Of a stretch of 64,000 nt of DNA, positions 344 through 53,932 are shown piece by piece (the stretch's first letter is position 1; each line of letters begins with the position of its first letter). Under the pieces are notes generated by a model, which saw nothing but the letters and a program-made list of their open reading frames with translations, was not told the DNA's origin and ran no database searches. The DNA is taken from assembly GCA_051306005.1 (NCBI GenBank), contig JBPPMJ010000006.1, positions 91,296 through 155,295 on the forward strand, given 5' to 3'. Origin of the DNA: Minisyncoccota bacterium. Its GTDB lineage: Bacteria; Patescibacteriota; Minisyncoccia; Moranbacterales; UBA1568. The position numbers and the translations under genes are program-made.

Positions 344-424
344 AAGAATGTATTGCCGACCTCTATAAAATAAAAAAATAATTCTTTTTTTGGCGAGATG
401 GTGTACCATTTCCATTTCGTCGTC

Positions 425-454
425 TTGACAGATTTTTTGAAATCATGGTAAAGT
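425..454 (+). promoter_or_regulatory. Candidate sigma70-like promoter upstream of ftsZ: TTGACA, ~17-18 nt spacer, weak -10 (TAAAGT)
   Basis: A consensus -35 hexamer TTGACA sits at 425-430 in the ftsA-ftsZ intergenic region. The -10 is weak. Confidence 0.2.
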
Positions 455-526
455 TAAACATTAAGAAACAGGTTTATTTGAAGGAATAAGTGGCATATTT
501 TTAACCTACCTTAAGGGGATACATGT

Positions 527-2364: not shown

Positions 2365-2371
2365 TGCTTTG

Positions 2372-3838
2372 ATGAATCGCACTATGCCGAAAGACCGTCT
2401 ATTATTGATGCTGTGTTTGGCGTATACTGGCGGCATTTTTTTAGGTTCTTTTTTTCCAATCGTATGGTGGTATGTTCTTCTGGCAAGTGCCAGTAGCTGT
2501 GGTTTTATAGTTGTTTTTTTTCCGAGATATTTGCTATTTTTCCTGTTATCAATGTTTGTGTTTTGGGGTGGTATCTTTTCTGTTTCTTTGGCACTGAATA
2601 AGGGTGAAACAATGTCCATTGATATGAATCAGAAGGTGTCTGGTATGGCTCGTGTGGTAGAGGAACCGGAAACGCGATCGCGTTATCAACAGGTGATCAT
2701 ACGGATGTATGCCTGTGATACCCATTCTTGTCCCGATGCCAAAATACTTTGGCAAGCACCATTAACCAAACCTTTTTCTTTTGGTTCTCGTATACAATTT
2801 TCTTGTCTTCTAAAAACGCCAAAAAATTTTGACACTTCTTTTGATTATCGAATGTTCTTGGCGAAAGATGATATATATTTTATTTGTGAACAAGCTTTGA
2901 CACAAGTGGTGCTACCAAATGATATGCGTGCCTCAATGGCTCAGTGGCTCATGATACCAAAACATGCTTTTGAGAAAGCAATTATAAAAAGTGTGCCACA
3001 ACCAGAAGGTGGATTGGCACTCGGTCTTCTGTTGGGCGGGGAACATCGTTTATCCGAAGCCGATCAACAAATTTTTCGACAGGCAGGTCTCTCGCACATC
3101 ACGGCTATTTCTGGATACAATATCGCCCTTATTGGACAACTGTTTCTTCTCTGTGGTCTGAATATTGGTTTATGGCGCAAACAGGCAATCTGGCTTTCCG
3201 CACTAGGTATCATTTTGTTTATTTGCTTGGTAGGCGCCCCAGCTTCAGCAGTAAGAGCTGGTATTATGGCACTTACCGTTTTTATTGGTTTTCTTTTTGG
3301 ACGTTTGACGTTTTCGATCAATGCTTTGATAGTAGCGGGAGTGGCGATGCTTGTGTTTCAGCCACTGTTATTGCGTTATGATATAGGTTTCCAACTCTCT
3401 TTTTTGGCAACACTGGCCATCATTCTTGTTTTGCCATTCAAGGAAAAGTGGTTGACTGGCGATTTTTTTGGAAAAAGCATAGTGGAAATTTTTTGGTTGA
3501 CCTTGGCCGTAGAAATATTAGTCACGCCGATTATTCTGTATCATTTTCATACCTTTGCACCATTTTCTTTGTTAGCCAATACGCTGTTGTTGCCACTTGT
3601 GCCCTATGCGATGGCCAGTACGTTTCTTACAGGAGCCACCTTTCTTTTGTTGCCTGGATTGCATATGATGCCAGCGATGATAGCGTATGGTTTTTTACGT
3701 GGCATCATGTTTGTAGCTGAACAAATCAGCCTGTTTGATTACGCAACGATTACATTGACACTACATCCGAGTGTGTTGTTTTTCTGGTATGGAACCATTT
3801 TTTTTGTTATCGTAATGATAAAACATTGGGAAAAATAA
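2372..3838 (+). CDS. comEC: ComEC/Rec2 DNA-uptake channel protein, transmembrane competence domain only
   Basis: Polytopic membrane protein with the ComEC signature GLSHITAISGYNIALIG. The ORF-track start at 2369 is TTG, and an ATG follows at 2372. A clean TAA stop at 3836-3838 separates it from the downstream MBL-domain ORF. Confidence 0.8.
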   Translation: MNRTMPKDRLLLMLCLAYTGGIFLGSFFPIVWWYVLLASASSCGFIVVFFPRYLLFFLLSMFVFWGGIFSVSLALNKGETMSIDMNQKVSGMARVVEEPETRSRYQQVIIRMYACDTHSCPDAKILWQAPLTKPFSFGSRIQFSCLLKTPKNFDTSFDYRMFLAKDDIYFICEQALTQVVLPNDMRASMAQWLMIPKHAFEKAIIKSVPQPEGGLALGLLLGGEHRLSEADQQIFRQAGLSHITAISGYNIALIGQLFLLCGLNIGLWRKQAIWLSALGIILFICLVGAPASAVRAGIMALTVFIGFLFGRLTFSINALIVAGVAMLVFQPLLLRYDIGFQLSFLATLAIILVLPFKEKWLTGDFFGKSIVEIFWLTLAVEILVTPIILYHFHTFAPFSLLANTLLLPLVPYAMASTFLTGATFLLLPGLHMMPAMIAYGFLRGIMFVAEQISLFDYATITLTLHPSVLFFWYGTIFFVIVMIKHWEK

Positions 3839-3842
3839 AGAT

Positions 3843-4691
3843 ATGATACGATACAAATTGCTTTGGTATTTTCTGATGGGTGTATCTTTGGCAATGTTAT
3901 TACTCTATTGTGTGTTGTGGTGGCAAAAATATCAGCACATGACCACTATCACTTTTCTGAATGTAGGGTCTGGTGATGCTATTTTGATTTCTCAGGGAAT
4001 GAATCAGGTACTGATAGATAGTGGACGAAATGGCAATGATGTTTTAGCGCAATTGGGACGCCAAATTCCTTTTTGGGATAGAACAATAGAGGTGTTGATA
4101 GCGACACATCCGGATGCGGATCATATCGGCGGTTTCGCCTCAGTTATTGAAGCATACTCCATACCATTCTTTTTGTTTACTGGATCAGAAAGTGATACGG
4201 AAACATCGCTTCTATTACAACAAATGTTGGAGAAGTACCATGTACAAAAGAAAAAAGTGTTTCGTGGAACGACGATACGTTTTCCTGTCGGGGGAGAACT
4301 AGTGGTGGAGTATCCCTTGACCGAACTACCAGCTATCATACCAGAAACAAATATGGGGAGCATCGTTAGTCGTTTTGTTTTTAGGGAAACTGATATTTTA
4401 TTGACTGGAGATTTGGCCAGAGAGGAGACGGTATTGCCAGATATTGCCTCCGCCGATATTTTGAAGATAGCACATCATGGCTCAAAATACTCAACAAGTG
4501 ATATCTTTTTGGAACGTGTCCGACCGTATGAAGCCATCATTTCAGTCGGTAAAAATAATTATGGTCATCCAAGTCCAGATGTGATAGAACGTTTAATACG
4601 GCACAATATTCTTATTCGTCGTACCGATCTTATGGGCAGTATCCGATATCGTTGTACAGAGGCTATTGGAGGCTGTGTTATCGATGAATGA
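3843..4691 (+). CDS. Metallo-beta-lactamase domain protein corresponding to the ComEC C-terminal nuclease domain, encoded as a separate ORF
   Basis: HPDADHIGG and AHHGSKYS metal-binding motifs of the MBL fold. It has its own N-terminal TM helix. It starts 4 nt after the comEC stop. Confidence 0.75.
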   Translation: MIRYKLLWYFLMGVSLAMLLLYCVLWWQKYQHMTTITFLNVGSGDAILISQGMNQVLIDSGRNGNDVLAQLGRQIPFWDRTIEVLIATHPDADHIGGFASVIEAYSIPFFLFTGSESDTETSLLLQQMLEKYHVQKKKVFRGTTIRFPVGGELVVEYPLTELPAIIPETNMGSIVSRFVFRETDILLTGDLAREETVLPDIASADILKIAHHGSKYSTSDIFLERVRPYEAIISVGKNNYGHPSPDVIERLIRHNILIRRTDLMGSIRYRCTEAIGGCVIDE

Positions 4692-6752: not shown

Positions 6753-7169
6753 GTGACTACTATCAACCAGCTTATCAAGCGTCCACGGACACTGTCCGTC
6801 AAAAAATCGAAGTCACCAGCCATGACTTATTCGATTAACAGCATCAAGAATCGTAATACTATACATGATAGCCCTTTTAAGCGTGGAGTATGTCTCAAAG
6901 TATCCACGACGACTCCCAAGAAACCAAACTCCGCTTTGCGGAAAATCGCCCGTGTGCGTTTGACAAACGGTATGGAAGTAACAGCTTACATTGGGGGTGA
7001 AGGGCACAATCTCCAGGAACACTCTATTGTCATGATTCGTGGTGGTCGTGTAAAGGACCTCCCTGGCGTGCGCTATCACATTGTGCGTGGGACATTTGAT
7101 GCGGCTGGTGTTAATCGAAAACAGAGTCGTTCCAAATACGGTATGAAAAAAGAAAAAAAGAAGGGATAG
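6753..7169 (+). CDS. rpsL: 30S ribosomal protein S12
   Basis: GTG start. [11 protein letters not shown]...[10 protein letters not shown]...[14 protein letters not shown] is the canonical S12 sequence. Confidence 0.95.
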
Positions 7170-7226
7170 TTTTTTTCTCAGAGTACATCGTTTTTATTAA
7201 TTTCTCGTAAGTTGAAAGTATAGAGT

Positions 7227-7694
7227 ATGCCACGAAGAAAGCGCACATTTACCCGTACATGGAAGCCTGATACTTTGCATGACAATATTCTTGTTGGACA
7301 TTTTGTCGGGATGATCATGTGGGATGGCAAGAAAAGCGTTGCTGAACGTTTGATATATGATGCTTTTGAGATTATTCATGAACGCACCAAAAAGGGTGGT
7401 TTGAATACGTTCGAGCAGGCTATCAAGAATGTTTCACCACTTTTGCAATTGAAGTCTCGTCGTGTCGGTGGAGCCAATTATCAGGTACCAGTGCCAGTTT
7501 CTGGTGAACGTCGTCAGGTATTGGCAATGCGTTGGATTCGTGATGCTTGCCGTAAGCGTAAAGGTAAAGGCATGGCGGAAAAATTGGCGGATGAATTGCT
7601 GGATGCTTCCAACAAAACAGGTGCTGCTATGAAGAAACGTGATGAGACACATCGTATGGCCGAAGCTAACAAAGCATTCGCTCATTTCGCATAA
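7227..7694 (+). CDS. rpsG: 30S ribosomal protein S7
   Basis: MPRRKR... S7 family. Follows rpsL in the str operon. Confidence 0.95.
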   Translation: MPRRKRTFTRTWKPDTLHDNILVGHFVGMIMWDGKKSVAERLIYDAFEIIHERTKKGGLNTFEQAIKNVSPLLQLKSRRVGGANYQVPVPVSGERRQVLAMRWIRDACRKRKGKGMAEKLADELLDASNKTGAAMKKRDETHRMAEANKAFAHFA

Positions 7695-39147: not shown

Positions 39148-40053
39148 ATGCATATTATCGGTCACCAGAAAGAACGGGAGCGCTTGCAAAAGAATGCAAT
39201 GCGTGATTCTTTGGTACACAGTTATCTCTTTTTTGGTCCTGGGAGTATTGGCAAATATCTGTGTGCTCAAGAATTTGCCTGGCAACTAACAGGGGTACTT
39301 GATTTTCAGCCGAGTGAAGGCATGCCTTCTCCTCCAGATGTCTTGATCATTGCGCCTGCAATGGAAGTCAAGCGTGGTGTCATAAAATACAAGAATATTT
39401 CCGCAGAAACAGTGCGGAATGCTCTTGAATTTCTTGCCCAGTTTCCGCTCACTGGGCGTTTTCGAGTGTTGATTATCGATGACGCTGACAAGATGTCGTT
39501 GACTGCGCAGAACATTCTGCTCAAGACTCTGGAAGAGGCACGCTCAACCGCCATTATTATTTTGGTAACGAACGAAAAAGGCAGTATCTTGCCTACCATT
39601 GTATCACGTGTTGAAAAAGTGCGTTTTGGGTATGTGCCTGCAACGGAAATACGAGCGGGCGTGAGTTCAATGCTGCCTCGGGAAACACGAGAAAGCATTG
39701 CCTCATTCTTTTTTGATCTCGGTCGACCAGGTATTATCTTAACCGCTCTTCAGAATCCAAAACGTTTTCTGAAGGATAAAGATATCTTGGAAAAATTATT
39801 TCAACTGTCCCGTCTTTCATTGTCGGAGCGGATGCGATTGGCAGAGATATTGGCCAAAAATGTACCGGATACTTTGCGTCTCTTAGAATGGTGGTTACCG
39901 GGATTGCATGTGCAAGCCAAGAAATATACGGATTATTATTCAATGAAACGTTTTTTGGAAATGTTGCATCGAATAGAGCGTACTGTACGGTTGCTCAAGA
40001 CGACACAGGGCAATGCGCGTCTGTTGTTGGAAACATTGTTTTTTTCAGTGTAA
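39148..40053 (+). CDS. holB: DNA polymerase III delta' subunit
   Basis: FFGPGSIGK P-loop-like motif, LIIDDADKM (DExD-like), sensor SRV/SRC motif. 301 aa. Confidence 0.8.
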   Translation: MHIIGHQKERERLQKNAMRDSLVHSYLFFGPGSIGKYLCAQEFAWQLTGVLDFQPSEGMPSPPDVLIIAPAMEVKRGVIKYKNISAETVRNALEFLAQFPLTGRFRVLIIDDADKMSLTAQNILLKTLEEARSTAIIILVTNEKGSILPTIVSRVEKVRFGYVPATEIRAGVSSMLPRETRESIASFFFDLGRPGIILTALQNPKRFLKDKDILEKLFQLSRLSLSERMRLAEILAKNVPDTLRLLEWWLPGLHVQAKKYTDYYSMKRFLEMLHRIERTVRLLKTTQGNARLLLETLFFSV

Positions 40054-41307: not shown

Positions 41308-43215
41308 TCATTTATTCAGTATCTCTTGAGGGGAGAGATAATAGATGAAGATGGAGTCGCCGGCACGGGTGATTGGTGTAATATTTTGAAGCCAAGAATA
41401 ATCTTGCGTACCGATCGGTTTTGATTTATAAAGACTTTCTTGATAAAAGAATGAGGAAATAGCATACCATCCTGGTTCTGGCTCTCGCTTGTCCCACCAA
41501 GAAATGAATGTATCATGTAAATAATATGCTGGATCACTTCCACCAAAATAATCAACTCGGATATGTTCAATCAAGGGATAGTTTTGAGTTAATGCACATT
41601 GTTTGATTTCATTTGAATATGCTGTTCCTGTTTTGCAACGATTGTGCCGTTCGACAAAGACCGAGAGATTTTTCAAGTCTTGCCCCCAGTCATAATTAGA
41701 ATCTGTGACATAACGATAGCCATTTTTTGATCCGCCAACGATGGGATTGAAATAGGAAAGATAACCCGGATATGTAAGAATAGGAATGGAGACGATAATA
41801 AAGACAATACCTCCGAGGATCCATGTAAGAACGGTATGTGTTGTAGGGTTATTTTGTTGACGTTTCAGAAAATCTAAAGTGGTCTTGGCGATGAGCATGT
41901 AGAGAAAAGGGAAAAATGGAAAGAGATGGCGAATGCCTATGGTGAGATTGCCAGTTATGCTGATGAAACCATAGAAAAGAATAAAGAAACAAATGAGATA
42001 CTGTGGAGTTTTGTCTTGTAATGATTGTCCAAAAAAATGTAGAGGACGAGTCAAAAGAGTGTTGGATTTCATGAAAAGCACTTTACTAATACGTGTTATC
42101 GTATAGCCTAGGGTGAAAAAAAGAAGAAATAAGAATGGCAACGTGCTTTTGAGTATGAAAACAACAGGGAAGTACCAAGGGGATGACTCCATAGAAACCG
42201 TACCTAAAAAGTAATGTGGATTACCACTGGCAACACGAGCAAAAACCATAAAGACACCTAACAAATATTCGCTGAAAGGTTTCAGTAAGACGCTATGGCT
42301 AGTCCAGATAACAAGGGCATTGGCTTTTTGTGCAAAAATATTGTTTTGCCCAAGATACAGGTGAGCGGCTTTTGTAAGTTGTTCTGCTGGCATATGAAAA
42401 GTATTGATTGCATAGAGCAACCAGATGAGGGTGAAACAGATGATGAGGCTTCCGATAAAGGCAGAAAGATAACGGACTATGATGCTGAAACGTTGTCGAA
42501 TCTTTGATGTATCTGTGCGTAGAGGAACAGTGACAGCATACAAGAGTGTGAATAATCCAAAGAGGGGCAATAAGAGGGCAGCAGATGATTTCGTTAACTC
42601 TGCGATGCCTAAAAATATTCCGGCAAAGACAATATTTTGTGCTTGTGGGTGTTGCAGAAATCGTATAAAAAAATAGCAGGCGAAAAAAATGGTGGCTGCA
42701 ATACCGATATCAGTGGTTACATAATGATTGTGCGCCAGAATATTGGGATCGGCGGCGTATAGCGTGACCGCGAACAATCCCGCGAGTGTTCCGCCGAGCT
42801 CTTTGGTCCAGATAAAGATGCCCAGTCCGAGAAGGAGGGAGAGTAGGATGATGGGCAGGCGCGACCAGAAGAGGATGGCATCGGCATCGTTGCAGGCGAT
42901 GTCTGGCTTGGTGCAGTTGATAAACATGTCTCCAATCGCCCATTGCTCATTGGTACCAGATTGCCATTCCTCAGAATCTAGTGGGAACGTCGGTTGAAAA
43001 GCGAGGAGCGGGAGACCCGCGAGATCCTTGAGGAGTGGTGGATGTTCCGGGTTGAGACGCATATCACCATAACGGACATAGCTATAGGCCGCGGGGATAT
43101 GGGCCTTTTCATCATAAATCGCTGACTCTTGACTGGAAACGGAAAGCGAGACGAGGAAGTGAACGAGGAGGATGCCAGCGACAATGAAGTTCGCATGTTT
43201 TTTGAGCAATTTCAT
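41308..43215 (-). CDS. GT-C fold glycosyltransferase, PMT family (dolichyl/polyprenyl-phosphate-mannose protein mannosyltransferase-like)
   Basis: First-loop YDEKAHIPAAYSY (DE motif) and EHPPLLK (PMT HPPLxK signature). Polytopic. The track ORF starts with TTG at 43227, and an ATG follows at 43215. Confidence 0.75.
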   Translation of the reverse strand: MKLLKKHANFIVAGILLVHFLVSLSVSSQESAIYDEKAHIPAAYSYVRYGDMRLNPEHPPLLKDLAGLPLLAFQPTFPLDSEEWQSGTNEQWAIGDMFINCTKPDIACNDADAILFWSRLPIILLSLLLGLGIFIWTKELGGTLAGLFAVTLYAADPNILAHNHYVTTDIGIAATIFFACYFFIRFLQHPQAQNIVFAGIFLGIAELTKSSAALLLPLFGLFTLLYAVTVPLRTDTSKIRQRFSIIVRYLSAFIGSLIICFTLIWLLYAINTFHMPAEQLTKAAHLYLGQNNIFAQKANALVIWTSHSVLLKPFSEYLLGVFMVFARVASGNPHYFLGTVSMESSPWYFPVVFILKSTLPFLFLLFFTLGYTITRISKVLFMKSNTLLTRPLHFFGQSLQDKTPQYLICFFILFYGFISITGNLTIGIRHLFPFFPFLYMLIAKTTLDFLKRQQNNPTTHTVLTWILGGIVFIIVSIPILTYPGYLSYFNPIVGGSKNGYRYVTDSNYDWGQDLKNLSVFVERHNRCKTGTAYSNEIKQCALTQNYPLIEHIRVDYFGGSDPAYYLHDTFISWWDKREPEPGWYAISSFFYQESLYKSKPIGTQDYSWLQNITPITRAGDSIFIYYLSPQEILNK

Positions 43216-43243
43216 AGAATGATACAATGATTAAGCATAGTGT

Positions 43244-44860
43244 TTATTTTTTTCGCTCTGGTAGAATGATAACATCAAAATCTCCACCAGCACGTTGTGA
43301 TCCATTCATATCGATATGTTCAACGAAAGTGTTTGGGTAGAGATCTTGGAATTTTTTTGCTAATGTTTCATTGTAATGGAGCATCAAAAGTACACCAGGT
43401 CCCTGAAATGTCGTATCGCCATTGATGATATGAAGATTGGCAACACGATGGTACGTGAGAAAATAGACCGGATGTGCAAAGACGGGCAAATGAAACCGGT
43501 TCGCATTGCCTTGCTCATCGATGAGAATATATTTTTGTGTTTCGTTAGGCAAAGTGAGGAGGTATCGTCCCATGTTGGTGTAGTTTTCATTGAATGCACT
43601 TCCTGCTGCTGGACTATGCGCAAAAAAGACAAAATATTTGGTGAAATTGAAAAGGGCACTGATTATGAGGATAAAGAGAAGCGTACAGAAGAGAGCTATC
43701 TTAGTATGTATTTTTGAACGTGTTGCCTGGGTGAATATCCAAAGCGCTGGAATGGTAGCAATCAAAAAGACAGGCATTTGTGTACCGATGGAACGAAGAG
43801 CATGTGGCAAGCCTTCATTGGTCAAAAACTCTGGAGCAAGCATGGTAAAAAATGAAACGATGAGAAAGGTATTGGTTACGAGACGAGCATCATGCCTTCC
43901 TTCTCTAAAACGTTTACCAAGCAGAGTGACTGTTTGCCAAATCAGAAAGAGAAAGCCTGCTAAGAAGAATGTACCAACAAAGGGATCAAGAATGGGGTAT
44001 GGAGGATAGTTGTGACGCCAATTTTGATCGCCGAAAAAATTGTATTTGATGAGCGATGTGGCGAAGGTTTTTGCGAGAGTTCCTCCTGCGTTACCGTGAT
44101 TGACTTCTGGTGAAAAGATAGAGATATGTGATGAACGTGAGGCAAAATCTTCAGGATGTGTGATAAAAAAATGAAACAGCATCGGCGATGCGGTAATGAA
44201 AGCACCAATAATAAAGCAACCTGCATGTTTCCAGAAACGTTGGAGAAAGTGTGGGTATGAGAGAAAGAGCGCGGGAAGGAGAAGAATAAGTATGAGTGGT
44301 GCAAGACGAAAAGCGACATAAGTATGTACCCCAATACCAAAAATAAGACCTGCAATAAAGAAATCTCGGAAACGTCTGGTCCGCAGACCTCGGAAAAAGA
44401 AATAAAACGAAAAAACGAGGAGAAAAGTGGTCATGATAGCACGAAAGCCAATGCGTGAGAAATTGATTGCCCAATAGGAAGTCGCTAGCATGAATCCCGC
44501 TAACAATCCCGCCATTTGGCGTTGAAAGAGTTCTCGTGCCAATAAAAAGATACCGAGGACCGAGCAGGTTCCAAAGAGTATGGACCATATTTTGAGACCT
44601 GTAATCGTGTTACCAAAGAGCGCTATGGAAATGGCCTGTAAATTGATAAAAAGACCTTCTCGTCCGAAATTGGCAGGATAAAAGATATCAAAATTTTTTG
44701 TTTCTAGAGCATGAAGTGCATCAACACCATTCGCAGCCTCGTCTGGATATATACCTGCTGGAATACTTTCAATGTGGTAGAAGCGAACGAAAAAAGCGAG
44801 ACAGAGAATAAGAAACAATACAATAATCACGATGAACCGAGTGGATTTTATGCTTGACAT
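43244..44860 (-). CDS. GT-C fold glycosyltransferase, PMT_2/ArnT-like
   Basis: YPDEA loop motif near the N-terminus and 11-13 predicted TM helices. In tandem with the PMT-family gene. Confidence 0.7.
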   Translation of the reverse strand: MSSIKSTRFIVIIVLFLILCLAFFVRFYHIESIPAGIYPDEAANGVDALHALETKNFDIFYPANFGREGLFINLQAISIALFGNTITGLKIWSILFGTCSVLGIFLLARELFQRQMAGLLAGFMLATSYWAINFSRIGFRAIMTTFLLVFSFYFFFRGLRTRRFRDFFIAGLIFGIGVHTYVAFRLAPLILILLLPALFLSYPHFLQRFWKHAGCFIIGAFITASPMLFHFFITHPEDFASRSSHISIFSPEVNHGNAGGTLAKTFATSLIKYNFFGDQNWRHNYPPYPILDPFVGTFFLAGFLFLIWQTVTLLGKRFREGRHDARLVTNTFLIVSFFTMLAPEFLTNEGLPHALRSIGTQMPVFLIATIPALWIFTQATRSKIHTKIALFCTLLFILIISALFNFTKYFVFFAHSPAAGSAFNENYTNMGRYLLTLPNETQKYILIDEQGNANRFHLPVFAHPVYFLTYHRVANLHIINGDTTFQGPGVLLMLHYNETLAKKFQDLYPNTFVEHIDMNGSQRAGGDFDVIILPERKK

Positions 44861-44876
44861 AGATATTTTTTATTTT

Positions 44877-44905
44877 TTCAATAGATTTTATTTCTATGGT
44901 ATAAT
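44877..44905 (+). promoter_or_regulatory. Promoter of the 44933-50617 operon: TTCAAT, N17, TGgTATAAT (extended -10)
   Basis: A consensus -10 with an upstream TG, a 17-nt spacer to a -35-like hexamer, and a 27-nt leader to the ATG at 44933. Confidence 0.45.
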
Positions 44906-44932
44906 GATAGCAAATTTCTCATACAAAAGACA

Positions 44933-47284
44933 ATGTCGCGTGATAAGGACTTTTCAAGGCAATCAAAGGAAGATCTGGATCCAGATATGGAAAGATATAG
45001 TGGTTCGGGCTTGTTGTTGCCACGAAGAAATAATCGTAGAAATAAAATAAAGAGAGTTGAGGGTGCGTCGGCAGTCATTTCAACGCAACCTCTTTTGTCA
45101 GCAGAGGTTCCGCCAGTTATTATTTTTACTGATGGAGGGCCTGCCCATAATGAAGCGGTTGTTTTGTTGTCTCATGATACTCTGGAAGAGAAACAAGAAA
45201 ACAATACTGTGCCTATTGCATCATCTCCTTTGTCCGTTATGACACCAGAAGAGACTCTAATTCCTTCAGTAGAGTCAGTGTCCACTTCTTCCGTCGTAAT
45301 ACAAAAACCTCTGATAGCTGATGAGGTAGAGGAACATATACAAAAGGAACATGTGGATGGTTCTCAGTCACTAGTCATGGAATTGTCCGAGCCCATCCCT
45401 GATGTATCGGTACCTGTATTGCAAGATACCGTTTCCCTTCGGATTATCGAAAAAGATAAACGAGAAAAAGCGGTAGCAGAAGCTCGTAAGAAATTTGTAG
45501 AAGAGGACTATAAAAATTCTACTTTGCATAAAAAATTGGGCGCATTTTTCCGTTTTAAAAAACAAGAAATGGAGGAGCATGTTGATGTGCAATATTGGAA
45601 AAATGAATATAAACGTACATTGCAGAGTTTGCAAGAGATGAAATTGGAGGATATTAAAGAGCAAAAAGGCACTGGCGAGGAAACGAAAGAGGCGTTGGCT
45701 GAAACTTTGCTATTTTTCAAACATGAAGCATTGCGCTTGTATCAAGAATACACTCAAGTACGCGAACAACATGCTGGCTGGATAGGCAAGGTTGCCAACA
45801 TGACGACAAAAATCGGAACGGGATACAATCAGCTTTCTTTTCAGCAGAAAATGTTGCTTTCAGGTGCTTTGTTGATTGGTGGTGTGGCAACTGGAGGTAT
45901 GTCAATAGTAGCCAAAAGAATGTTAGCGGGGACAGGAAGTTTTGTGGGCATAGAGGGCGCTTTGCAAAAATGGTTTGATGCTAGAGAAGTGAAACGAGTA
46001 GATAATGATATTCAGACACGGATGCAGGCGGAGCAACATTCGTTTGTGGATGGGGGAAACGCTACTCTCCAGTATGAAACACTACGTCATGTTACCCATA
46101 CCGCTATTGAAGAATTAGATACAAGACTACAGCAGAAAAAATGGGAAAATATGTTGCGAAAAACCATAGCAACAGGTATAGCGGTTGGGATTGGTTCGGG
46201 TATGTTCTCTCATATGGTGACGGGGTATCTACATGGTACTGAGACAGTGTCAGAATTGGGGCGTCCGGTAGGCAACGTACTGATGGGACAGACAGATACG
46301 ATGCTGGATATTGTTGATCATCAGGCATCACCATTGATGGTTACTTCAGATGGTATGCAAATTCCATGGGATGGGACTGACATTGACAGAACACTTTCAT
46401 CACAAGATGCCTTGAAGGTACAGACTCAAAAAATGTTGGACGTTTTGGAAAAGCATACTCCGCATGATGTATTGAGTGCTCATCAAATTCCATCAGCATC
46501 GAATCATTTGGAAGAGATTATGCCAAAAGTTTCGCTTTCTACTTTGTTGCAAGACTATGTATTGACGCGCGCGGATGGATCCCGTGGGCTGTGGGGCATC
46601 ATTGATGCTCAGTTGCCGACAGAATTGGCACGGGAAGAACGTCACGCAATCATCCAAAAAATAGAAAATGTGATTGCGGAACGTTTACAAGATATGTCTC
46701 CAGAGGAACGAAAATTGGCCGGTTTTCCGACCGGTAACATCAATCAAATATATGCTGATGATACGCTACGACTCGGTACATTGCTTACGGAAAACGATAT
46801 CCATGCTATTGTGAGAGAATCTGCTTCTTTTCCATCTGATTCTGTACTTTCTGTTGGAGCGGAAGCGGGTTTGACAGGAGGTGTCATAACTGATCCTCCG
46901 CTTATGGATTTGGATATTCGTCTTGATCGGGATATTCATCTGGGGAAAGCCTATGACATTCAGGCATACAAAGAGTATCTTGTGAAACATCCGGAAGATT
47001 TTCCGGTTTTCAAAAAAATGAGTGCCGAATATGTGGACTTTATCTTTCAAGGTAATATGCAAGAGATGGGTCGGATGGGTAGTTTGACGTTACATGAACT
47101 TACTCCGACAGATATACAACAAACAAAATTAGCAGAATTTTTCCGCTTATCACGTGAAGCTTTTGGTCCAAAGTTGGGTTTGCCGGGAAAACAAGAAAAA
47201 ATGTATGAATATATGATGCGTATGGCAATGCTTGGTATCGAACATCCAACAGGGAAACGTGTGTTTATCCCCAAGTGGATGTAA
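44933..47284 (+). CDS. Hypothetical 783-aa protein with two glycine-zipper hydrophobic segments
   Basis: Long ORF with no recognisable catalytic motifs. Segments LLSGALLIGGVATGGMSIVA and IATGIAVGIGSGMFSHMVTG (GxxxG repeats) lie mid-protein. It is the first gene of a tightly spaced four-gene operon. Confidence 0.6.
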   Translation: MSRDKDFSRQSKEDLDPDMERYSGSGLLLPRRNNRRNKIKRVEGASAVISTQPLLSAEVPPVIIFTDGGPAHNEAVVLLSHDTLEEKQENNTVPIASSPLSVMTPEETLIPSVESVSTSSVVIQKPLIADEVEEHIQKEHVDGSQSLVMELSEPIPDVSVPVLQDTVSLRIIEKDKREKAVAEARKKFVEEDYKNSTLHKKLGAFFRFKKQEMEEHVDVQYWKNEYKRTLQSLQEMKLEDIKEQKGTGEETKEALAETLLFFKHEALRLYQEYTQVREQHAGWIGKVANMTTKIGTGYNQLSFQQKMLLSGALLIGGVATGGMSIVAKRMLAGTGSFVGIEGALQKWFDAREVKRVDNDIQTRMQAEQHSFVDGGNATLQYETLRHVTHTAIEELDTRLQQKKWENMLRKTIATGIAVGIGSGMFSHMVTGYLHGTETVSELGRPVGNVLMGQTDTMLDIVDHQASPLMVTSDGMQIPWDGTDIDRTLSSQDALKVQTQKMLDVLEKHTPHDVLSAHQIPSASNHLEEIMPKVSLSTLLQDYVLTRADGSRGLWGIIDAQLPTELAREERHAIIQKIENVIAERLQDMSPEERKLAGFPTGNINQIYADDTLRLGTLLTENDIHAIVRESASFPSDSVLSVGAEAGLTGGVITDPPLMDLDIRLDRDIHLGKAYDIQAYKEYLVKHPEDFPVFKKMSAEYVDFIFQGNMQEMGRMGSLTLHELTPTDIQQTKLAEFFRLSREAFGPKLGLPGKQEKMYEYMMRMAMLGIEHPTGKRVFIPKWM

Positions 47285-47307
47285 TAATATTGATAATAAA
47301 AATATAT

Positions 47308-47616
47308 ATGCCATTTGAATATGATAGTATCAAGCGTGAACTGATTCAAGACCTTCATTTGGATGTCTTCACTCCAGAACATCAAGAGGAGCTGTTATCC
47401 ATCATGGGTGAAGTGTTGCTCAAGCGTATTTTTTTGGAAACAATGGAGAAGATAGGAGGCACGGGAGTAGCGGAATATGAGAAATTGTTGGATGCTCTTG
47501 CTGGACAAGATCAAATAGACAACTTCTTCGAGCAAAAAATTCCAGGCTATCCTGTTTTTGTACGCAGTATCGTAGATGCTTTCAAAGAAGAAATGTCACA
47601 GGATAAAATGATGTGA
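47308..47616 (+). CDS. Hypothetical small acidic protein (102 aa)
   Basis: The ORF lies 24 nt downstream of the preceding gene. It is acidic and predicted helical, with no homology recognised. Confidence 0.5.
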   Translation: MPFEYDSIKRELIQDLHLDVFTPEHQEELLSIMGEVLLKRIFLETMEKIGGTGVAEYEKLLDALAGQDQIDNFFEQKIPGYPVFVRSIVDAFKEEMSQDKMM

Positions 47617-47643
47617 TTATAAACATTAGCATACGAAACGGGT

Positions 47644-48069
47644 ATGGAAGAAACTCTCATTCCTGAAACAGGAAAAGAAAAACAGGGTGTTGATGCATTG
47701 TTGACATCTCAGGATGAAGCGCCGGCATCATTGAAATCTGGTGAATTGCCCGTGTCTCCCGAAAAGGATTCGGAACAATCTGTAGGGGAAAAACTGGACG
47801 CGTTGTTACATCAAGTGGTAACACCGACCACCCATACTGCATCGATATCTGTCGATGTACAGACGGACGCACAGAATATCGATATGTTGTTGGATGAGGA
47901 GAGTAAAGTACGTCAGTTGGTAGATATGGCTGTGGTCAAAGGAGTCGTCCACGCGGTCGCCGTGGCTAGGAAAATGAATGATTATTATGTGCTGGACAAG
48001 ATGCATGATGAGCTGGTGGACAAACTTTATGACAATCTGCTGACTCAAGGGTTGATTCATAAAGATTAA
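47644..48069 (+). CDS. Hypothetical small acidic protein (141 aa)
   Basis: Co-oriented, with a 28-nt gap. Acidic. No homology recognised. Confidence 0.5.
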   Translation: MEETLIPETGKEKQGVDALLTSQDEAPASLKSGELPVSPEKDSEQSVGEKLDALLHQVVTPTTHTASISVDVQTDAQNIDMLLDEESKVRQLVDMAVVKGVVHAVAVARKMNDYYVLDKMHDELVDKLYDNLLTQGLIHKD

Positions 48070-48127
48070 ATGCGAGATTTCATTATTGTTCGGAGAAGAA
48101 CTTTATATTATTATTGATACTATCGTC

Positions 48128-50617
48128 ATGAACGGTTTTGATCTCAATGTCTTTTTTGAACCAATCCTCATTTTTTTTGCCGGCGTTGCTCTTGTGAGTG
48201 GAGGTTTTTTGGTGTTACGCAGTTTTTTGCGTTTTCGGTATCAAGTCAATCAATCCATCAATATGGATTTGGAAATGGTTCGCGTCATTCGAAAACAGAA
48301 GCCTGAAGGTGGAAATCAGGGTGCCGAGGCATGGAAGGAGGAAATATTGGCGATGGAACAACTTTTGTCTTCACTGACCACGTTGAAAGTAAAAGGGAGT
48401 ATCATTAAACGTCTTTTTTTTGATACCCCTACAATGGTGCTTGAAATTGCCAATCCTTCTTCTAGTGAAGAAATTTTCTTTTACCTGTCTTTTCCGAAAC
48501 GTTTTCGAGAAAGTGCTGAAAAACAGATACATAGCTTCTTTCCTCAAGCTGTAATTGAAAAGGTATCTGATTATACTATTTTTTCCCCAGATAATGTGAC
48601 GGCAGTTTCTGTCTTGGAATTAACACATCAACAACCATTGCCACTTCGCACTTATCGTACCGTGGATATTGATCCGCTCAATGAAATTTCTAATGCTTTG
48701 AGCAAACTTAAGACAGTTGAAGAGGGAGCCGCTATCCAGATTCTTTTAACAGGATCTGGATCGCACTGGCGTAAAGAGGGAAAAATAATCGCGCAAAAAA
48801 TGCAATCTGGTAAACGTCTGAAGGATGCTACCGGACATTCTTTGATACGAGAATTAAGTACATCAGTGGGTAAGGAGGTCATCAGTATGACAGTGAATGC
48901 ACGCAAAACGAAAGGAACTGAAGATTTAAAACCGGTCGTTTTGACTCCGGAAGAACAGGAGTTGGTGAAAGCCATTGATAGTAAGGCTCACAAAGGGGCG
49001 TTTCGTGCCAATATTCGTCTCGTTGCTTCCGGTGAAACAGCGGAGCGAGCAGCGGATATCCTAGCACATATGGAAAATGCTTTTGGCCAGTTTGAAAATC
49101 AGGATGTGAACAGTTTTCGTGTCAAAAAACGCATACATCAAAAACAGAGCGTCTATGATTATATTTTTCGTAACTTTGATGATGAGACCGCTATGATTCT
49201 TTCAGTGGAAGAATTAGCCAGTATTTTTCATTTCCCTATTTCTACAACTGAGACCCCAAAAATTAAATGGCTGAAATCTGGAGCAGCCGCGCCACCAGTC
49301 AATATTCCTAGGGAAGGTATTTTGTTGGGCATAAATGATTATCGTGGTATTAAGACGGAGATTCGTATTACAGATAATGATCGTCGACGTCATATGTATG
49401 TCATTGGACAGACTGGCGTCGGTAAATCAAATTATCTCCAAGAAATGGCTAAGAAGGATGCACGATCAGGAAAGGGTTTTTGTTTTATTGATCCACATGG
49501 TGATGCTATTGAGGATATTTTGACAGCTATTCCGAAAGAACGGGCTGAAGATGTCATTATTTTTGATCCGGCCGATGTTGATCGTCCTATTGGTATCAAT
49601 ATGTTGGAATATGATCCAGCGCATCCAGAACAAAAAACATTCGTTATCAACGAGATGATTGGTATTTTTGACCAATTGTATGACATGAAGGCAACTGGAG
49701 GCCCGATGTTTGAACAATATATGCGTAATGCCATGCTCTTGATTATGGAGCATCCAGAGAGTGGTTCGACACTTATGGAAATTCCTAAGGTGTTGGCCGA
49801 CGAAGAATTCCGTCGATATAAGCTTGCGCATTGTACCAATCCTATTGTGCGTGATTTTTGGTTAAAAGAAGCGGAAAAAGCTGGCGGTGAGGCTTCATTG
49901 GCAAATATGGTACCGTATATCACGTCCAAGCTGACAACTTTCATTTCCAATGATATGATGCGCCCGATTATTGCTCAGCAAAAGAGTGCGATCAATTTTC
50001 GTGAATGTATGGATAGCAAGAAAATCATTTTAGTGAATCTTTCCAAAGGAAAAATCGGAGAAATTAATGCCCGGCTTTTAGGTATGGTGATTGTTGGAAA
50101 GATTTTGATGGCAGCTCTGTCCCGTGTGGATACGGCCGAAGAAAAACGTAATGACTTTTATCTTTATTTGGATGAATTCCAAAACGTTACCACGACATCT
50201 ATTGCGCAAATCTTGTCGGAAGCGCGTAAATATCGCCTTGTTTTGATTCTGGCGCATCAGTTTATTGGTCAGCTCAAGGAAGAGATTTCTAAAGCAGTCT
50301 TTGGCAACGTCGGATCGCTGACAGCGTTTCGGGTAGGGCCAGAGGATGCTGAATTTTTAGAAAAGCAATTTGCGCCCATTTTTTCTGCTAATGATTTGAT
50401 GAATGTGGATAATTATCAGTGTTTCGTCCGGCTCTTGATGAACAATGAGCTCACTAAGCCATTTAATTTGAGGACATATCCGCCGACACACGGAGATCAG
50501 GCAGTCTCAAATGCTCTCAAAGAATTGTCTCGTCTACGCTATGGGCGTGATGCTACGATTGTAAATCGCGAAATTATGAGTCGTATTCAGCTCGCTGAAA
50601 GTACAGTCGGTAGGTAA
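48128..50617 (+). CDS. Membrane-anchored FtsK/HerA-superfamily ATPase of the type IV coupling protein (VirD4/TraG/TraD-like) type
   Basis: N-terminal TM helix. Walker A HMYVIGQTGVGKS...GFCFIDPHGD (GxTGxGKS...DPxGD as in TraD/TrwB). Walker B YLYLDEFQN. C-terminal ARKYRLVLILAHQFIGQL...FGN motif resembling the TraG/VirD4 RxxGxxLxLxxQSxxQL motif. About 400 aa of unknown domain lie between the TM helix and the P-loop. The track ORF uses TTG at 48086, and an ATG follows at 48128. Confidence 0.75.
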   Translation: MNGFDLNVFFEPILIFFAGVALVSGGFLVLRSFLRFRYQVNQSINMDLEMVRVIRKQKPEGGNQGAEAWKEEILAMEQLLSSLTTLKVKGSIIKRLFFDTPTMVLEIANPSSSEEIFFYLSFPKRFRESAEKQIHSFFPQAVIEKVSDYTIFSPDNVTAVSVLELTHQQPLPLRTYRTVDIDPLNEISNALSKLKTVEEGAAIQILLTGSGSHWRKEGKIIAQKMQSGKRLKDATGHSLIRELSTSVGKEVISMTVNARKTKGTEDLKPVVLTPEEQELVKAIDSKAHKGAFRANIRLVASGETAERAADILAHMENAFGQFENQDVNSFRVKKRIHQKQSVYDYIFRNFDDETAMILSVEELASIFHFPISTTETPKIKWLKSGAAAPPVNIPREGILLGINDYRGIKTEIRITDNDRRRHMYVIGQTGVGKSNYLQEMAKKDARSGKGFCFIDPHGDAIEDILTAIPKERAEDVIIFDPADVDRPIGINMLEYDPAHPEQKTFVINEMIGIFDQLYDMKATGGPMFEQYMRNAMLLIMEHPESGSTLMEIPKVLADEEFRRYKLAHCTNPIVRDFWLKEAEKAGGEASLANMVPYITSKLTTFISNDMMRPIIAQQKSAINFRECMDSKKIILVNLSKGKIGEINARLLGMVIVGKILMAALSRVDTAEEKRNDFYLYLDEFQNVTTTSIAQILSEARKYRLVLILAHQFIGQLKEEISKAVFGNVGSLTAFRVGPEDAEFLEKQFAPIFSANDLMNVDNYQCFVRLLMNNELTKPFNLRTYPPTHGDQAVSNALKELSRLRYGRDATIVNREIMSRIQLAESTVGR

Positions 50618-50655
50618 CTATTCTTGATATGCCACATCAGTCAGACGTAAGCCTC

Positions 50656-53037
50656 TCACTCGGGAATCTTGAGCATAAGCAGTGCGTGGTTTGTTGCTAA
50701 AAAGATTGTATTCGTATTCTCATCAACCACAAATGACTGAATGGTATCAGTCGTACGCACAGGATATTGAGTAAAAAAAGTGCCATCAAGATTCCAAGCC
50801 CTCACTATATTATTGGTATCTAACGCATAGATATGCATGAGTTTGGGGGCAATATAAAGTTGTGTAATAGTAATAGGTGCAGAAATGACGAGCGTTGTTT
50901 GTGTACGACCGCGAGAAAAGGAATGGATTGATTGATCAAAGGCGAGGAAAAGAGCTTCATCTGTTGCCATTTTCGATGTTTCTGTGATAGAGATAGCTTC
51001 CTTGAGCCAAGCGGTTGGTGCGGAGAATCCACCTTCATTGCGGGGGAAGCGGTAGATTTGGTCGGTTTTGCTATCCAATACATAGAGATAGGTGAGATAG
51101 GTAGCTATGGATTGAACTTCAGTGTCAATTGGCAAGGGAAGAGTGTTGTTAGCGAATGTGTTGTTATTTGGACTCCAAGATAGTAATGTCTGTGTATCTG
51201 TGTAGAAAAAGAGAAGATCAAGGTCTGGCATAGGTGTGACCATAATTGGTATTCCTTTGTCGGCTGGAAATGGGAAATGTTTTTCATCAGGCATCCGAAT
51301 AATATCATTGTTGGTAATAATGTATGTTGTATCATTCAAGCGAGTGACAGCGACAATCTGCGTGTGAGTATCAATCGTTATGAGTTCCAGCGGTTGACTA
51401 TGAGTATCAGATACGAGATCTGCGGGCGTTGATTCGATAGGCGTTTGAGAAATATCATTGTCTGAAGATACTGTGGCAGATTTATCAGAATTGGCAAGTA
51501 TCCAGCCGATTACTATGAGGACGAGAATGAGTATACTTAATCCGATCAATATCTGGTATCGTTTTTTGGGATCCAATGTTTTCCATGCAGAGTAGAAAGA
51601 ATGCATGTCATACTTTATTTGGTGTATCCAGTGACGTGAAAAAGCGAGTAATTTTGTGGTGAATAGCTGAGTATCTATACGCATGCTGTTCCACACTTTG
51701 GTGAGGGGGAAATTTTTTATGAATACTGATTGCGTCTGTTTGTCGGTAGGTACGTTTTGTTTCGGACCATTCTTTTGATAAAAGGTCACAAGTTTTTCTT
51801 TTATGAAAGTATGTGTAATAGCATGAGTAGTGAGGTTGTCTAATTGTGTCGGTATGGGCATATCCTGTTCTTTGGGTAAAGATGGTGATATTGCCGTATT
51901 TTTTCTTGTTGTGGTTGATTGGGCGAGGGAAGAGGACCTTTGATGTATGATTTTTTGTATCCTTATAATGCCTTGTTTTTTCACGGATTTCAAAAATATG
52001 AGACTGGATTTTTTGCTTTTACGTAATATTTTTTTATAAGAACGAAGAAACTCTTGTAGCCATTGTCGATAATTTTGATAGCGCAAACTGAAATGTTCGA
52101 TCAATGGATGTGTTTTGGTTGGTATCTGTGTATCGCCCTGAATATAGATGTGTCCTGTTTGAGTATCAATATAATCATCAGATGTTGGGGAGGAGGATGT
52201 TTCGTGTGTTTGGGAAGTAGTGAGAGCCTTTGGTACGCGGTTATCTTCCGCAAAGGCCTGTTTGCTGAAAACATTTTTCACTCTATTGTGATGAGGTCTC
52301 GGAGGTACTGCTACTGGCATTTTTGGTTCGTTGATATCAATAGTAATGATACCAGCCATAGCTAATTCATTGGTCAAGGCGGTGTGTAAAAATCGAATAA
52401 AATGATCATTGGACATGCGAATGGCATTTTTTTCCAATACCTCAGGTGGCAGTACGGAAAATACTTCTGGTGAGGTAAGAATAATTTTGTCGGTCGCTAT
52501 GAGGCGGCCACTAGAAACCTCAACAAAAGTTTTGAGAGGATGGGTGGATGCTTCTTCAGAAGATAGACCTTGTCCAATATCTGAGAGTTGTTTATTGCGT
52601 AGTAAGAGGATAGACGCCTGTCCCGTAATAGAAAAATGAATATTGTTTTTTTCAATAATTCCCAAAACGCCATGCAATTTCCCAAGCCAGGCTACATTGC
52701 CACGTTTCACCAATTCCGCTAAAGCAACATTAATTTTATGGAGACTCGCTTCAAAACTTTCAATGGCACCCCGTCGCGGATTACTAAAATATTCTTTCTT
52801 GGCAACGGAAGCCAAAAAATTGACGATATATGCCATATCATCACCTTTTCCATTGATTGTAAAAATCCCCATCAATGTCCCGAGTGCGCTACCAGCGATA
52901 TTTTCACTACTGACGTGAAAGACATTAATAAAGAGTTTGGTGGTATGTTCGGTAGCGGATACGATTTCCGTTATCGATTTTTGTAGATTCGAAGACGTCT
53001 TCATTTTTTCGATTTGTTTTTTTTCGGACATATTCAC
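50656..53037 (-). CDS. Hypothetical 793-aa single-pass membrane protein (cytoplasmic N-domain, TM, extracellular C-domain)
   Basis: Long ORF convergent with the ATPase gene. Central TM YQILIGLSILILVLIVIGWIL. No recognisable catalytic motif. GTG start at 53037, with an alternative ATG at 53031. Confidence 0.55.
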   Translation of the reverse strand: MNMSEKKQIEKMKTSSNLQKSITEIVSATEHTTKLFINVFHVSSENIAGSALGTLMGIFTINGKGDDMAYIVNFLASVAKKEYFSNPRRGAIESFEASLHKINVALAELVKRGNVAWLGKLHGVLGIIEKNNIHFSITGQASILLLRNKQLSDIGQGLSSEEASTHPLKTFVEVSSGRLIATDKIILTSPEVFSVLPPEVLEKNAIRMSNDHFIRFLHTALTNELAMAGIITIDINEPKMPVAVPPRPHHNRVKNVFSKQAFAEDNRVPKALTTSQTHETSSSPTSDDYIDTQTGHIYIQGDTQIPTKTHPLIEHFSLRYQNYRQWLQEFLRSYKKILRKSKKSSLIFLKSVKKQGIIRIQKIIHQRSSSLAQSTTTRKNTAISPSLPKEQDMPIPTQLDNLTTHAITHTFIKEKLVTFYQKNGPKQNVPTDKQTQSVFIKNFPLTKVWNSMRIDTQLFTTKLLAFSRHWIHQIKYDMHSFYSAWKTLDPKKRYQILIGLSILILVLIVIGWILANSDKSATVSSDNDISQTPIESTPADLVSDTHSQPLELITIDTHTQIVAVTRLNDTTYIITNNDIIRMPDEKHFPFPADKGIPIMVTPMPDLDLLFFYTDTQTLLSWSPNNNTFANNTLPLPIDTEVQSIATYLTYLYVLDSKTDQIYRFPRNEGGFSAPTAWLKEAISITETSKMATDEALFLAFDQSIHSFSRGRTQTTLVISAPITITQLYIAPKLMHIYALDTNNIVRAWNLDGTFFTQYPVRTTDTIQSFVVDENTNTIFLATNHALLMLKIPE

Positions 53038-53326
53038 TGAGTAGTATTTTTGGATGACAAAGGTGGCACAGAGCTGATGTAATCAGGAGACCAGACAATA
53101 CTTTGGTATTATACAAAAGAAAACAAGCCACACTTTTCTGATGTCAAAGTGGCATATGGATAAAATTATATCACAAATGTTTAAATAAAGCTCTTTATAG
53201 AGAGCTTTATTAAGTGTATCAATCAGAAAGACTGCCAGACTGATTTTTTGACGTGCCAGACCATGTTCTGTATAATGGTGAAAAAGAGGCTTTTTATAGT
53301 ATATTTTAATTTTTTTGTATTTCCTT

Positions 53327-53932
53327 ATGTCTCTTGCCACTTTTGACGTTTTGTTCGGATCGAAAGTACGCGCCCGTCTCATCCGTTTTTTCCTCGTAAA
53401 TCCAGGAGCAGAATTTTCTGCTCTGGAGGTAGCTGAAAAAACGCTTATTTCTCGTGTTGAAGTAACTCGTGAATTGACACGCCTCACCAAGATGAAATTA
53501 TTAATTGAACGCTCACGTAAAGGCAAAAAGTGTTTTATCGCCAATGAAGAATTTCCATTTTACACAGAATTAAAAAGTTTAGTCTCCAAACTCAATGTTC
53601 ATGCCCAATCGCAAGTGTTTCGCAAACTGAGGGTTATTGGAGAAGTTAAACTCATTTTAATTAGTGGATTGTTTTTGAATTATCCGAAAAGCAAGGTAGA
53701 TATGATCTTGGTGGTAAATAATGTTAACCGTACCAAGCTGAAGCACGCCATCGCTCATCTGGAGGCGGAAGTTGGCAGAGAAATTCGTTTTGTTTTAATG
53801 AACAGTGAGGAATTGCATTATCGTTTAAATATGCTGGATCGGTTTTTTATTGAATTTTTAGAGGGTCCATATGAAGGAGTTACCAACAAGGTACCTGAAT
53901 TGAAGCGTTTTATCGCTGGTCTCAAAAAATAG
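53327..53932 (+). CDS. Hypothetical protein with an N-terminal winged-helix-like DNA-binding region
   Basis: FGSKVRARLIRFFLVNPGAEFSALEVAEKTLISRVEVTRELTRL resembles wHTH regulators. The track ORF uses TTG at 53315, and an ATG follows at 53327. Confidence 0.45.
   Translation: MSLATFDVLFGSKVRARLIRFFLVNPGAEFSALEVAEKTLISRVEVTRELTRLTKMKLLIERSRKGKKCFIANEEFPFYTELKSLVSKLNVHAQSQVFRKLRVIGEVKLILISGLFLNYPKSKVDMILVVNNVNRTKLKHAIAHLEAEVGREIRFVLMNSEELHYRLNMLDRFFIEFLEGPYEGVTNKVPELKRFIAGLKK

Follow-up and report, generated by a model that had tools for sequence, protein, structure and literature searches.

Introduction

Type IV coupling proteins (T4CPs) of the VirD4/TrwB family share a P-loop domain with the motifs GxTGxGKS...DPxGD, DE(F/L) and RK...Q..QL, a helical segment inserted between the Walker A and Walker B motifs, and a membrane anchor, typically made of two transmembrane (TM) helices. 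Like HerA, T4CPs are DNA-dependent motors. Some coupling ATPases work with small acidic partners that bring in substrates or control the motor, i.e., DotL with IcmS, IcmW, DotN and LvgA in Legionella, Cag-beta with CagZ in H. pylori, and TraD with TraM of the F-plasmid. In Patescibacteria, 5,713 T4CP homologues have been reported in 2,918 of 3,035 genomes, only 148 of them near virB4 (PMC12102498), and Quinonero-Coronel et al. (2025), in the same study, raised their exaptation as a possibility. In the one species tested, S. epibionticum (Saccharibacteria), the T4SS (type IV secretion system) is essential, and no coupling protein or relaxase can be recognized in its gene cluster (PMC10633639). 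Here we analyze a locus in a stretch of 64,000 nucleotides (the window; contig JBPPMJ010000006.1 of assembly GCA_051306005.1), in which four + strand genes encode a 783-residue glycine-zipper protein, two small acidic proteins of 102 and 141 residues and a membrane-anchored ATPase, and are followed by a convergent gene for a 793-residue membrane protein.

Results

A conserved operon around a T4CP-like ATPase

The module is genuine: a conserved operon with a T4CP-like ATPase at its center. All five open reading frames (ORFs) described in an initial annotation of the window were found in the sequence, and its view of the four + strand genes as one tight unit is backed both by short junctions (23, 27 and 58 nt) and by synteny. 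In a sample of 81 loci, all from distinct Moranbacteria species and with ATPases 65-85% identical to the one studied here, the five-gene neighborhood was conserved in at least 60-81 of the 81 species (Table 1). It was also conserved in a Pacebacteria-labelled genome, which kept the full gene set with an ATPase of 66% identity, and the locus L162 carried the same gene set as the Moranbacteria operon, including a homologue of the 793-residue protein. In a relative at 49% identity the DUF5663 gene, which encodes the 102-residue protein, was retained together with a 70-residue version of the 141-residue protein, and in one at 43% only the 141-residue family was left of the partners. The 141-residue family thus persists where the ATPase is only 43-49% identical (L163 and L164), and DUF5663 was also present in L162 and L164.

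Further afield, in 80 distant metagenomic loci, the ATPase was directly preceded on its strand by a small gene (100-190 residues), in most cases with an acidic product. These upstream proteins fell into separate families with no detectable mutual homology (by hhalign, no pair exceeded 20% probability unless both came from the same family); hidden Markov models (HMMs) of the partners built from Moranbacteria rarely matched the distant loci, and iteration did not extend them. Because neither comparison joined the families, homology of the partners across subfamilies is unproven. One "basic upstream" family (C4) looked by eye like a PduO-type cobalamin adenosyltransferase and was set aside as a probable housekeeping neighbor rather than a partner.

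The extended -10 element that the initial annotation had placed before the operon was confirmed as TGgTATAAT. A generic sigma-70 promoter scan gave 27 hits against 23.1 expected, i.e., not above chance, but the pattern TGnTAnAAT occurred 5' of the first gene in 12 of 60 homologous loci, against a background of 1.1%. It was found 5' of the two small genes in only 3/66 and 3/80 loci, so that the first gene alone shows an enrichment.

The ATPase joins a VirB4-like N-domain to a T4CP-type motor

The 829-residue ATPase consists of a single TM helix, a module resembling the N-terminal domain of VirB4, and a T4CP-type motor with intact catalytic motifs, and, within the FtsK/HerA superfamily, it falls into the T4CP branch. 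Its proposed VirD4/TraD-like identity was supported by Pfam, family-profile and structure-model matches. The P-loop domain runs in the order Walker A (GQTGVGKS), IDPHGD, a predicted helical insertion at residues ~502-606, Walker B (DEFQN) and RKYRLVLILAHQ; these four motifs, already picked out in the initial annotation, were all present and were invariant among homologues, and phmmer aligned the ATPase motifs with the Walker A and RK...Q..QL motifs of TrwB. In the AlphaFold2 model, where local confidence is moderate in this region, about six helices occupy residues 502-606 between Walker A and Walker B, a candidate for the all-alpha domain that T4CPs carry within their nucleotide-binding domain. 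Hydropathy reached 2.38 over PILIFFAGVALVSGGFLVL, marking the TM helix, and the model has a long helix at residues 7-45. At the C-terminus there is a conserved helix of basic character (K798-R819).

The ATPase scored 30.4 bits with Pfam TrwB_AAD_bind (cut-off 20.5) and 25.9 bits with TraG-D_C (cut-off 22), and DUF87 also matched, above or near its cut-off. Matches to TraD/VirD4-like NCBIfam models were weak: every equivalog model stayed far short of its cut-off, which means that no named T4CP is an ortholog of the ATPase. With a profile of diverse family members, the best solved relatives were TrwB (5e-8) and DotL (2e-5), followed by HerA, and VirB4 was absent from the PDB matches at E <= 1. 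Likewise, neither CagE_TrbE_VirB nor AAA_10 matched the ATPase in Pfam at E <= 0.1, and phmmer with a plasmid AAA_10 VirB4 as query gave no match.

The N-terminal half of the ATPase is covered by DUF8128 (PF26449), a precomputed match on a protein 100% identical to the window ATPase (P0001) and on all of the homologues listed. The full-length AlphaFold model (pLDDT, i.e., predicted local distance difference test, 66.6) matched TrwK/VirB4, DotL, TrwB, Cag-beta and HerA. The protein is thus a P-loop NTPase of the FtsK/HerA superfamily in which a VirB4-N-domain fold precedes the C-terminal ATPase domain. It is not an ordinary FtsK/SpoIIIE paralog: a Pfam scan gave no FtsK_SpoIIIE match and no FtsK alpha, beta or gamma domain, and in one locus (L086) a canonical four-domain FtsK is encoded 3 kb from a member of the ATPase family.

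Distant relatives of the ATPase in plasmids and phages

The ATPase is a member of a very large family. Among 1.84 billion cluster representatives, 5,682 clusters (at 50% identity) matched the ATPase at E <= 1e-30, most of them over the full length and at 33-56% identity. The breadth of the family beyond Paceibacteria rests on these cluster counts and on the literature, as the protein search with a diverse alignment returned mostly Moranbacteria. More distant homologues, full-length with both domains and 21-28% identical, were found in SPO1-like Bacillus phages (phrog_5156, E = 7e-89), in Streptomyces replicons, in haloarchaeal and Sulfolobus plasmids and in B. subtilis plasmids. In the B. subtilis plasmid NZ_OX419568.1 the homologue, a DUF87 protein aligned over residues 95-811 (E = 1e-34), heads a conjugation operon, with a relaxase-family gene, TcpE and a VirB4-like AAA_10 ATPase coming directly after it; this is the classical position of a coupling protein (PMC12857230). 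Because the homologue sits in a bona fide conjugation operon, the architecture of the ATPase must be old and in use by real conjugative T4CPs; with phages carrying it as well, the locus is not the wholly new kind of system that had been suggested.

Phage G also encodes a full-length homologue. In Bacillus phage SP-10 (L166, 127145-130541), two small ORFs precede the homologue, a layout that gives the impression of VirB2/VirB3 before VirB4. As counterparts of the partners these ORFs were rejected, being unrelated, hydrophobic membrane proteins.

These homologues in conjugative plasmids and SPO1-like phages might suggest that a conjugative or phage element once integrated and left the locus behind, or that the locus is a defense system, with the ATPase left over or co-opted and without a dedicated cellular role; among PADLOC models, the ATPase domain also hits mad8 at 6e-13 and, weakly, those of HerA. 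We consider this very improbable, and rejected the defense-system version. The ATPase keeps a stable chromosomal position between the same housekeeping neighbors in at least 60 species, GC content is even along the window, and no integrase, relaxase or repeat boundaries were found there. The ATPase is under strong purifying selection, more so than most adjacent housekeeping genes, and none of the partner proteins (783-, 793- and 141-residue proteins and DUF5663) matched PADLOC or PHROGs.

The partner proteins

Both small proteins are acidic, as first described, with isoelectric points of 4.46 (for the 113-residue GTG form of the 102-residue protein) and 4.57. The 102-residue protein, named "DUF5663 domain-containing protein" by NCBI, matches DUF5663 (PF18908) at 24.4 bits against a cut-off of 23.7, over model positions 2-83 of 84. 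In the 141-residue protein the N-terminal half is variable and appears to be of low complexity, and a C-terminal domain of ~65 residues is conserved, with A104, A108, D118 and H121 invariant in the family; the protein has no relatives in Pfam or the PDB. Profile searches of PDB and Pfam with both families gave nothing convincing.

The 783-residue protein has a variable N-terminus (1-180), a conserved core (181-440), a variable linker and a C-terminal region (541-780). The core contains a coiled-coil-like stretch and two glycine-zipper hydrophobic segments (~308-340 and ~417-437). The two GxxxG-rich segments reported initially are therefore both present, although only the first (308-326) passes a standard hydropathy threshold. 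The family evolves fast, its termini and central linker being hypervariable; a search with the single sequence found nothing, and homologues were recovered only by synteny-guided HMM iteration. It is no known housekeeping family, having no match to any known family in Pfam or the PDB. In the C-terminal region, the family profile matched the LysM repeats of LytE with an E value of 8e-4 for the whole sequence and 0.12 per domain, a weak match over 32 residues; the motif V.kGDslWki is conserved in the family, with no Pfam LysM match. The suggestion that this protein is cargo or an effector found no support: what is conserved is the glycine-zipper membrane region, and with hypervariable termini around it a membrane component fits better than a polymorphic effector.

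The 793-residue protein comprises a conserved N-terminal domain (~20-300), a variable linker, a TM helix (496-514) and a C-terminal beta-propeller-like (NHL-like) domain; the family matched NHL repeats at E = 0.003 and no Pfam family consistently. It is convergent and single-pass as stated initially, but the large extracytoplasmic domain did not hold up, since ~495 residues precede the TM helix and only ~280 are extracytoplasmic. K/R residues flanking the helix on its N-terminal side make a cytoplasmic location of the N-terminal part probable. Its tie to the operon is positional only, and a homologue was absent from the 80 distant metagenomic loci.

Relation to a type IV secretion system

From the lack of other T4SS genes, the initial annotation had taken the ATPase to be decoupled from a classical T4SS. 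The lack itself was confirmed: every window ORF of at least 500 residues, and most others of at least 250, could be placed either in a housekeeping family or in this locus, and VirB4, relaxase and VirB6 were not found among these larger ORFs, small pilin genes not having been covered exhaustively. Nevertheless, 64 kb allow no conclusion on decoupling. Patescibacteria T4CP homologues usually lie away from virB4, and an absence that is the rule for the family says nothing by itself.

We favor, at about an even chance, the reading that the locus encodes a chromosomal VirD4/TrwB-family translocase with accessory proteins, whose channel would most probably be a T4SS encoded elsewhere. A T4SS in trans is suggested because T4CPs of this group lie apart from virB4, because no coupling protein is recognizable in the T4SS cluster of S. 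epibionticum (Saccharibacteria), and because VirB4 was scored in three of the five genomes that carry this locus and are listed in Table S1 of PMC12102498. By analogy with TrwB, DotL and HerA, the ATPase would act as a membrane-bound hexamer, and the small acidic proteins might bind it as adaptors or regulators, in the manner of IcmS/IcmW on DotL, CagZ on Cag-beta and TraM on TraD. The glycine-zipper protein would be a membrane-embedded partner, or possibly a substrate. Such a complex would recruit a macromolecular substrate, protein or DNA, and pass it to a membrane channel, most probably a VirB4-type T4SS encoded elsewhere in Patescibacteria genomes.

Several observations weigh against this reading. 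No physical or genetic link of the locus to a T4SS was found, and the association with a relaxase and/or a VirB4-type T4SS that helps to define T4CPs is missing from the ATPase. A VirB4-like gene lies within 8-10 kb in only 1 of 164 homologous loci, and T4CP homologues occur in 2,918 of 3,035 genomes, VirB4 in 2,417 (PMC12102498). Two of the five genomes checked were scored VirB4-negative, both of them drafts, one being 1.22 Mb and thus similar in size to a complete relative. In S. epibionticum the T4CP homologue, possibly but not necessarily a DUF8128 protein, was reported to be non-essential, whereas the T4SS is essential (PMC12102498). Conservation of the ATPase (median identity 70%, compared with 59% for RmuC and 41% for HolB) is unusually high for a secretion component, and the recurrence of dnaX/holB, RmuC and SNase (staphylococcal nuclease) genes near it hints at a housekeeping function connected with DNA. 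That the small proteins are adaptors is drawn by analogy only: no homology to IcmS/W, CagZ or TraM could be detected in them, nor could any be detected among the small upstream proteins of different distant subfamilies.

Some of these points would equally suit an autonomous, minimal apparatus for export or contact-dependent delivery, made up of the ATPase, the two small partners and the glycine-zipper protein and needing no VirB4-type T4SS. The glycine-zipper protein would be its channel or cargo and the 793-residue protein a surface component. The conserved five-gene neighborhood, the near absence of adjoining VirB4 genes, the excess of genomes with T4CP homologues over those with VirB4, and the VirB4-negative 1.22-Mb draft genome that carries the locus all speak for it. 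So does the ATPase N-domain, whose fold is the one by which VirB4 docks on the inner-membrane complex and which could therefore stand in for VirB4-type contacts. We nevertheless think it unlikely, as the locus encodes no polytopic channel protein (VirB6-like), just one hydrophobic segment of the 783-residue protein passes the TM threshold, and the VirB4-negative scores come from draft metagenome-assembled genomes (MAGs). Furthermore, the 783- and 793-residue families are confined to a Moranbacteria-like clade, whereas the ATPase with a small partner is far more widespread.

The sole VirB4-like gene among the 164 loci (L104, 3955-5715; P-loop_TraG/AAA_10, 586 residues) lies ~2 kb upstream of the DUF8128 ATPase.

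Neighboring genes and a possible role in DNA handling

A different T4SS-independent role would be that of a DNA motor, i.e., a membrane-anchored FtsK/HerA-superfamily translocase serving a core process, for instance to take up or scavenge DNA, to handle the chromosome when cells divide, or in repair, with the small proteins as regulators. This too we regard as improbable, at about the level of the autonomous apparatus. The DNA dependence of T4CPs and HerA would suit it, as would conservation of the ATPase above that of neighboring housekeeping genes, the presence of T4CP homologues in nearly all Patescibacteria genomes, and weak NCBIfam matches of the ATPase to the archaeal DNA-import ATPases CedB and CedD. 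The neighboring genes point the same way. Clamp-loader genes of DNA polymerase III (holB or dnaX) lie near the ATPase in the window (39148-40053) and in L134, L150, L163 and L164, in several clades directly downstream of it; RmuC lies 3.4 kb downstream in the window; and in L163, from a lineage without DUF5663, an SNase gene (6773-7315) lies two genes upstream. However, clamp-loader genes were present in the flanks of only 23/81 Moranbacteria and 7/80 metagenome loci, and the linkage may be a relic of an ancestral gene order. A DNA-binding domain was not detected, a canonical FtsK exists alongside the family (L086; TM7x ftsK, PMC10768705), and ComEC-based competence is separately present (window 2369-4691).

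Gene calls and content of the window

The window is ordinary chromosome of a Moranbacteria-type Patescibacteria MAG, labelled Minisyncoccota at NCBI, and encodes FtsZ, a split ComEC, EF-G, SecY, glycolytic enzymes, Mur enzymes, MreB, glycosyltransferases and HolB. A search for tandem repeats at the locus found none; its features are collected in Table 1.

Table 1. Features of the locus in the window, arrangement of the families in the 81 Moranbacteria loci, and median identity
Feature	Position	Strand	Remarks	Arrangement and occurrence	Median identity
Extended -10 promoter-like element TGgTATAAT	44897-44905	+	27 nt before first ATG; read directly		
783-residue glycine-zipper protein gene	44933-47284	+		Family (475-1384 residues) directly upstream of DUF5663 gene, 68/81 loci	24%
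DUF5663 gene (acidic, 102 residues)	47308-47616	+	ATG start per family alignment and NCBI MGK2849191.1	Next gene upstream of 141-residue gene, 68/81 loci	45%
141-residue acidic protein gene	47644-48069	+	Start backed by family alignments and public annotation	Directly upstream of ATPase, same strand, 81/81 loci	42%
829-residue membrane-anchored T4CP-type ATPase	48128-50617	+	ATG start annotated and aligned		70%
ATPase, single N-terminal TM helix	48161-48217	+	Residues ~12-30 of 829-residue form		
ATPase, DUF8128 N-domain, VirB4-N-terminal-domain-like fold	48263-49237	+	Residues ~46-370		
ATPase, P-loop translocase domain	49310-50332	+	Residues ~395-735		
Convergent 793-residue single-pass membrane protein gene	50656-53037	-		Convergent, downstream of ATPase, 60/81 loci, mostly within 0-900 bp	35%
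PMT-type glycosyltransferase				Divergent, upstream of operon, 60/81 loci	52-53% (PMT glycosyltransferases)
RmuC					59%
MraY-like					48%
HolB					41%

Some of the starts have alternatives. The ORF at 47275-47616 (+) encodes 113 residues from a GTG, but the ATG at 47308 was taken as the true start of the DUF5663 gene, and a TTG at 48086 would extend the ATPase to 843 residues (ORF 48086-50617). The family alignment places the start of the 793-residue protein at Met3 (ATG at 53031). With their ORF-finder starts, the 783- and 793-residue sequences had no exact match in the public protein collection, so that the annotated starts probably differ.

Upstream of the operon and divergent from it, two tandem glycosyltransferases of the PMT_2 (dolichyl-phosphate-mannose-type) family are encoded at 41308-44860, syntenic in 41/81 and 60/81 loci, respectively. 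A 205-residue ORF at 53315-53932 is conserved like the ATPase (median identity 73% in 48 loci); it gave weak winged helix-turn-helix-like hints only, and no Pfam family at E <= 1e-3. The split ComEC consists of two ORFs 4 nt apart, the first (2369-3838) with the DUF4131 and Competence channel domains and the second (3843-4691) with the metallo-beta-lactamase domain.

Discussion

That stray T4CP homologues exist in Patescibacteria is already known. What is apparently new is the set of conserved partners, the resemblance of DUF8128 to VirB4 and the pattern of conservation; we found no mention of DUF8128, DUF5663 or the other partner genes in the literature. The locus offers a defined candidate coupling module, in which the ATPase is joined by its two small partners and one membrane protein, for a group in which an essential T4SS cluster lacks a coupling protein. 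That a T4CP-type motor carries a VirB4-like N-domain is also relevant to the divergence of the two T4SS ATPases. A more far-reaching idea, to which we give a low probability, is that Patescibacteria possess a near-universal, T4SS-independent translocation machine, in which a chimeric ATPase (VirB4-type N-domain, T4CP-type motor) works with lineage-specific acidic adaptors. In Moranbacteria, the glycine-zipper membrane protein and a beta-propeller surface protein may also be involved, and the ATPase family may be an evolutionary intermediate between VirB4 and VirD4, captured for a core function of these episymbionts. Should the module turn out to be T4SS-independent, it would count as a new core machine for a major radiation of bacteria.

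The locus differs from those of VirD4/TrwB-family T4CPs in several respects. No relaxase, VirB4 or other T4SS gene adjoins it, and small acidic proteins precede the ATPase. It is chromosomal and keeps the same position in at least 60 of 81 species, and its ATPase has one TM helix where two are usual. The 325-residue VirB4-N-terminal-domain-like region is, moreover, absent from TrwB, DotL and Cag-beta. It does have a counterpart in the plasmid T4CP of NZ_OX419568.1, with which the alignment spans both the N-domain and the ATPase domain. The window ATPase carries the same NCBI annotation as the Patescibacteria T4CP homologues of PMC12102498 and is very likely a member of that set; that study reports neither the N-domain nor the partner genes (DUF5663, the 141-residue family and the glycine-zipper protein).

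Compared with VirB4 (TrwK of R388), the ATPase domain is T4CP-like by sequence, and there are no VirB3 or VirB8 neighbors. With FtsK/SpoIIIE the ATPase shares its superfamily, a membrane anchor, a chromosomal location and high conservation, but it lacks the alpha, beta and gamma domains and the 4TM N-terminus. The locus also shares with Type VII secretion a membrane-bound FtsK/HerA-superfamily ATPase next to two proteins of 102 and 141 residues, and an EccE-like fold. However, the ATPase has one ATPase domain rather than the three of EccC and no FtsK_SpoIIIE match, the locus encodes no EccB, EccD or MycP, and both small proteins are free of tryptophan and hence of the WXG motif of WXG100 substrates.

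In relation to the DotL, Cag-beta and TraD complexes, the small proteins show no sequence similarity to the described partners and are encoded directly upstream of the ATPase in one operon. What the locus has in common with these complexes is a coupling ATPase accompanied by small acidic proteins, the partners there being like the 102- and 141-residue proteins in size and charge, and probably helical.

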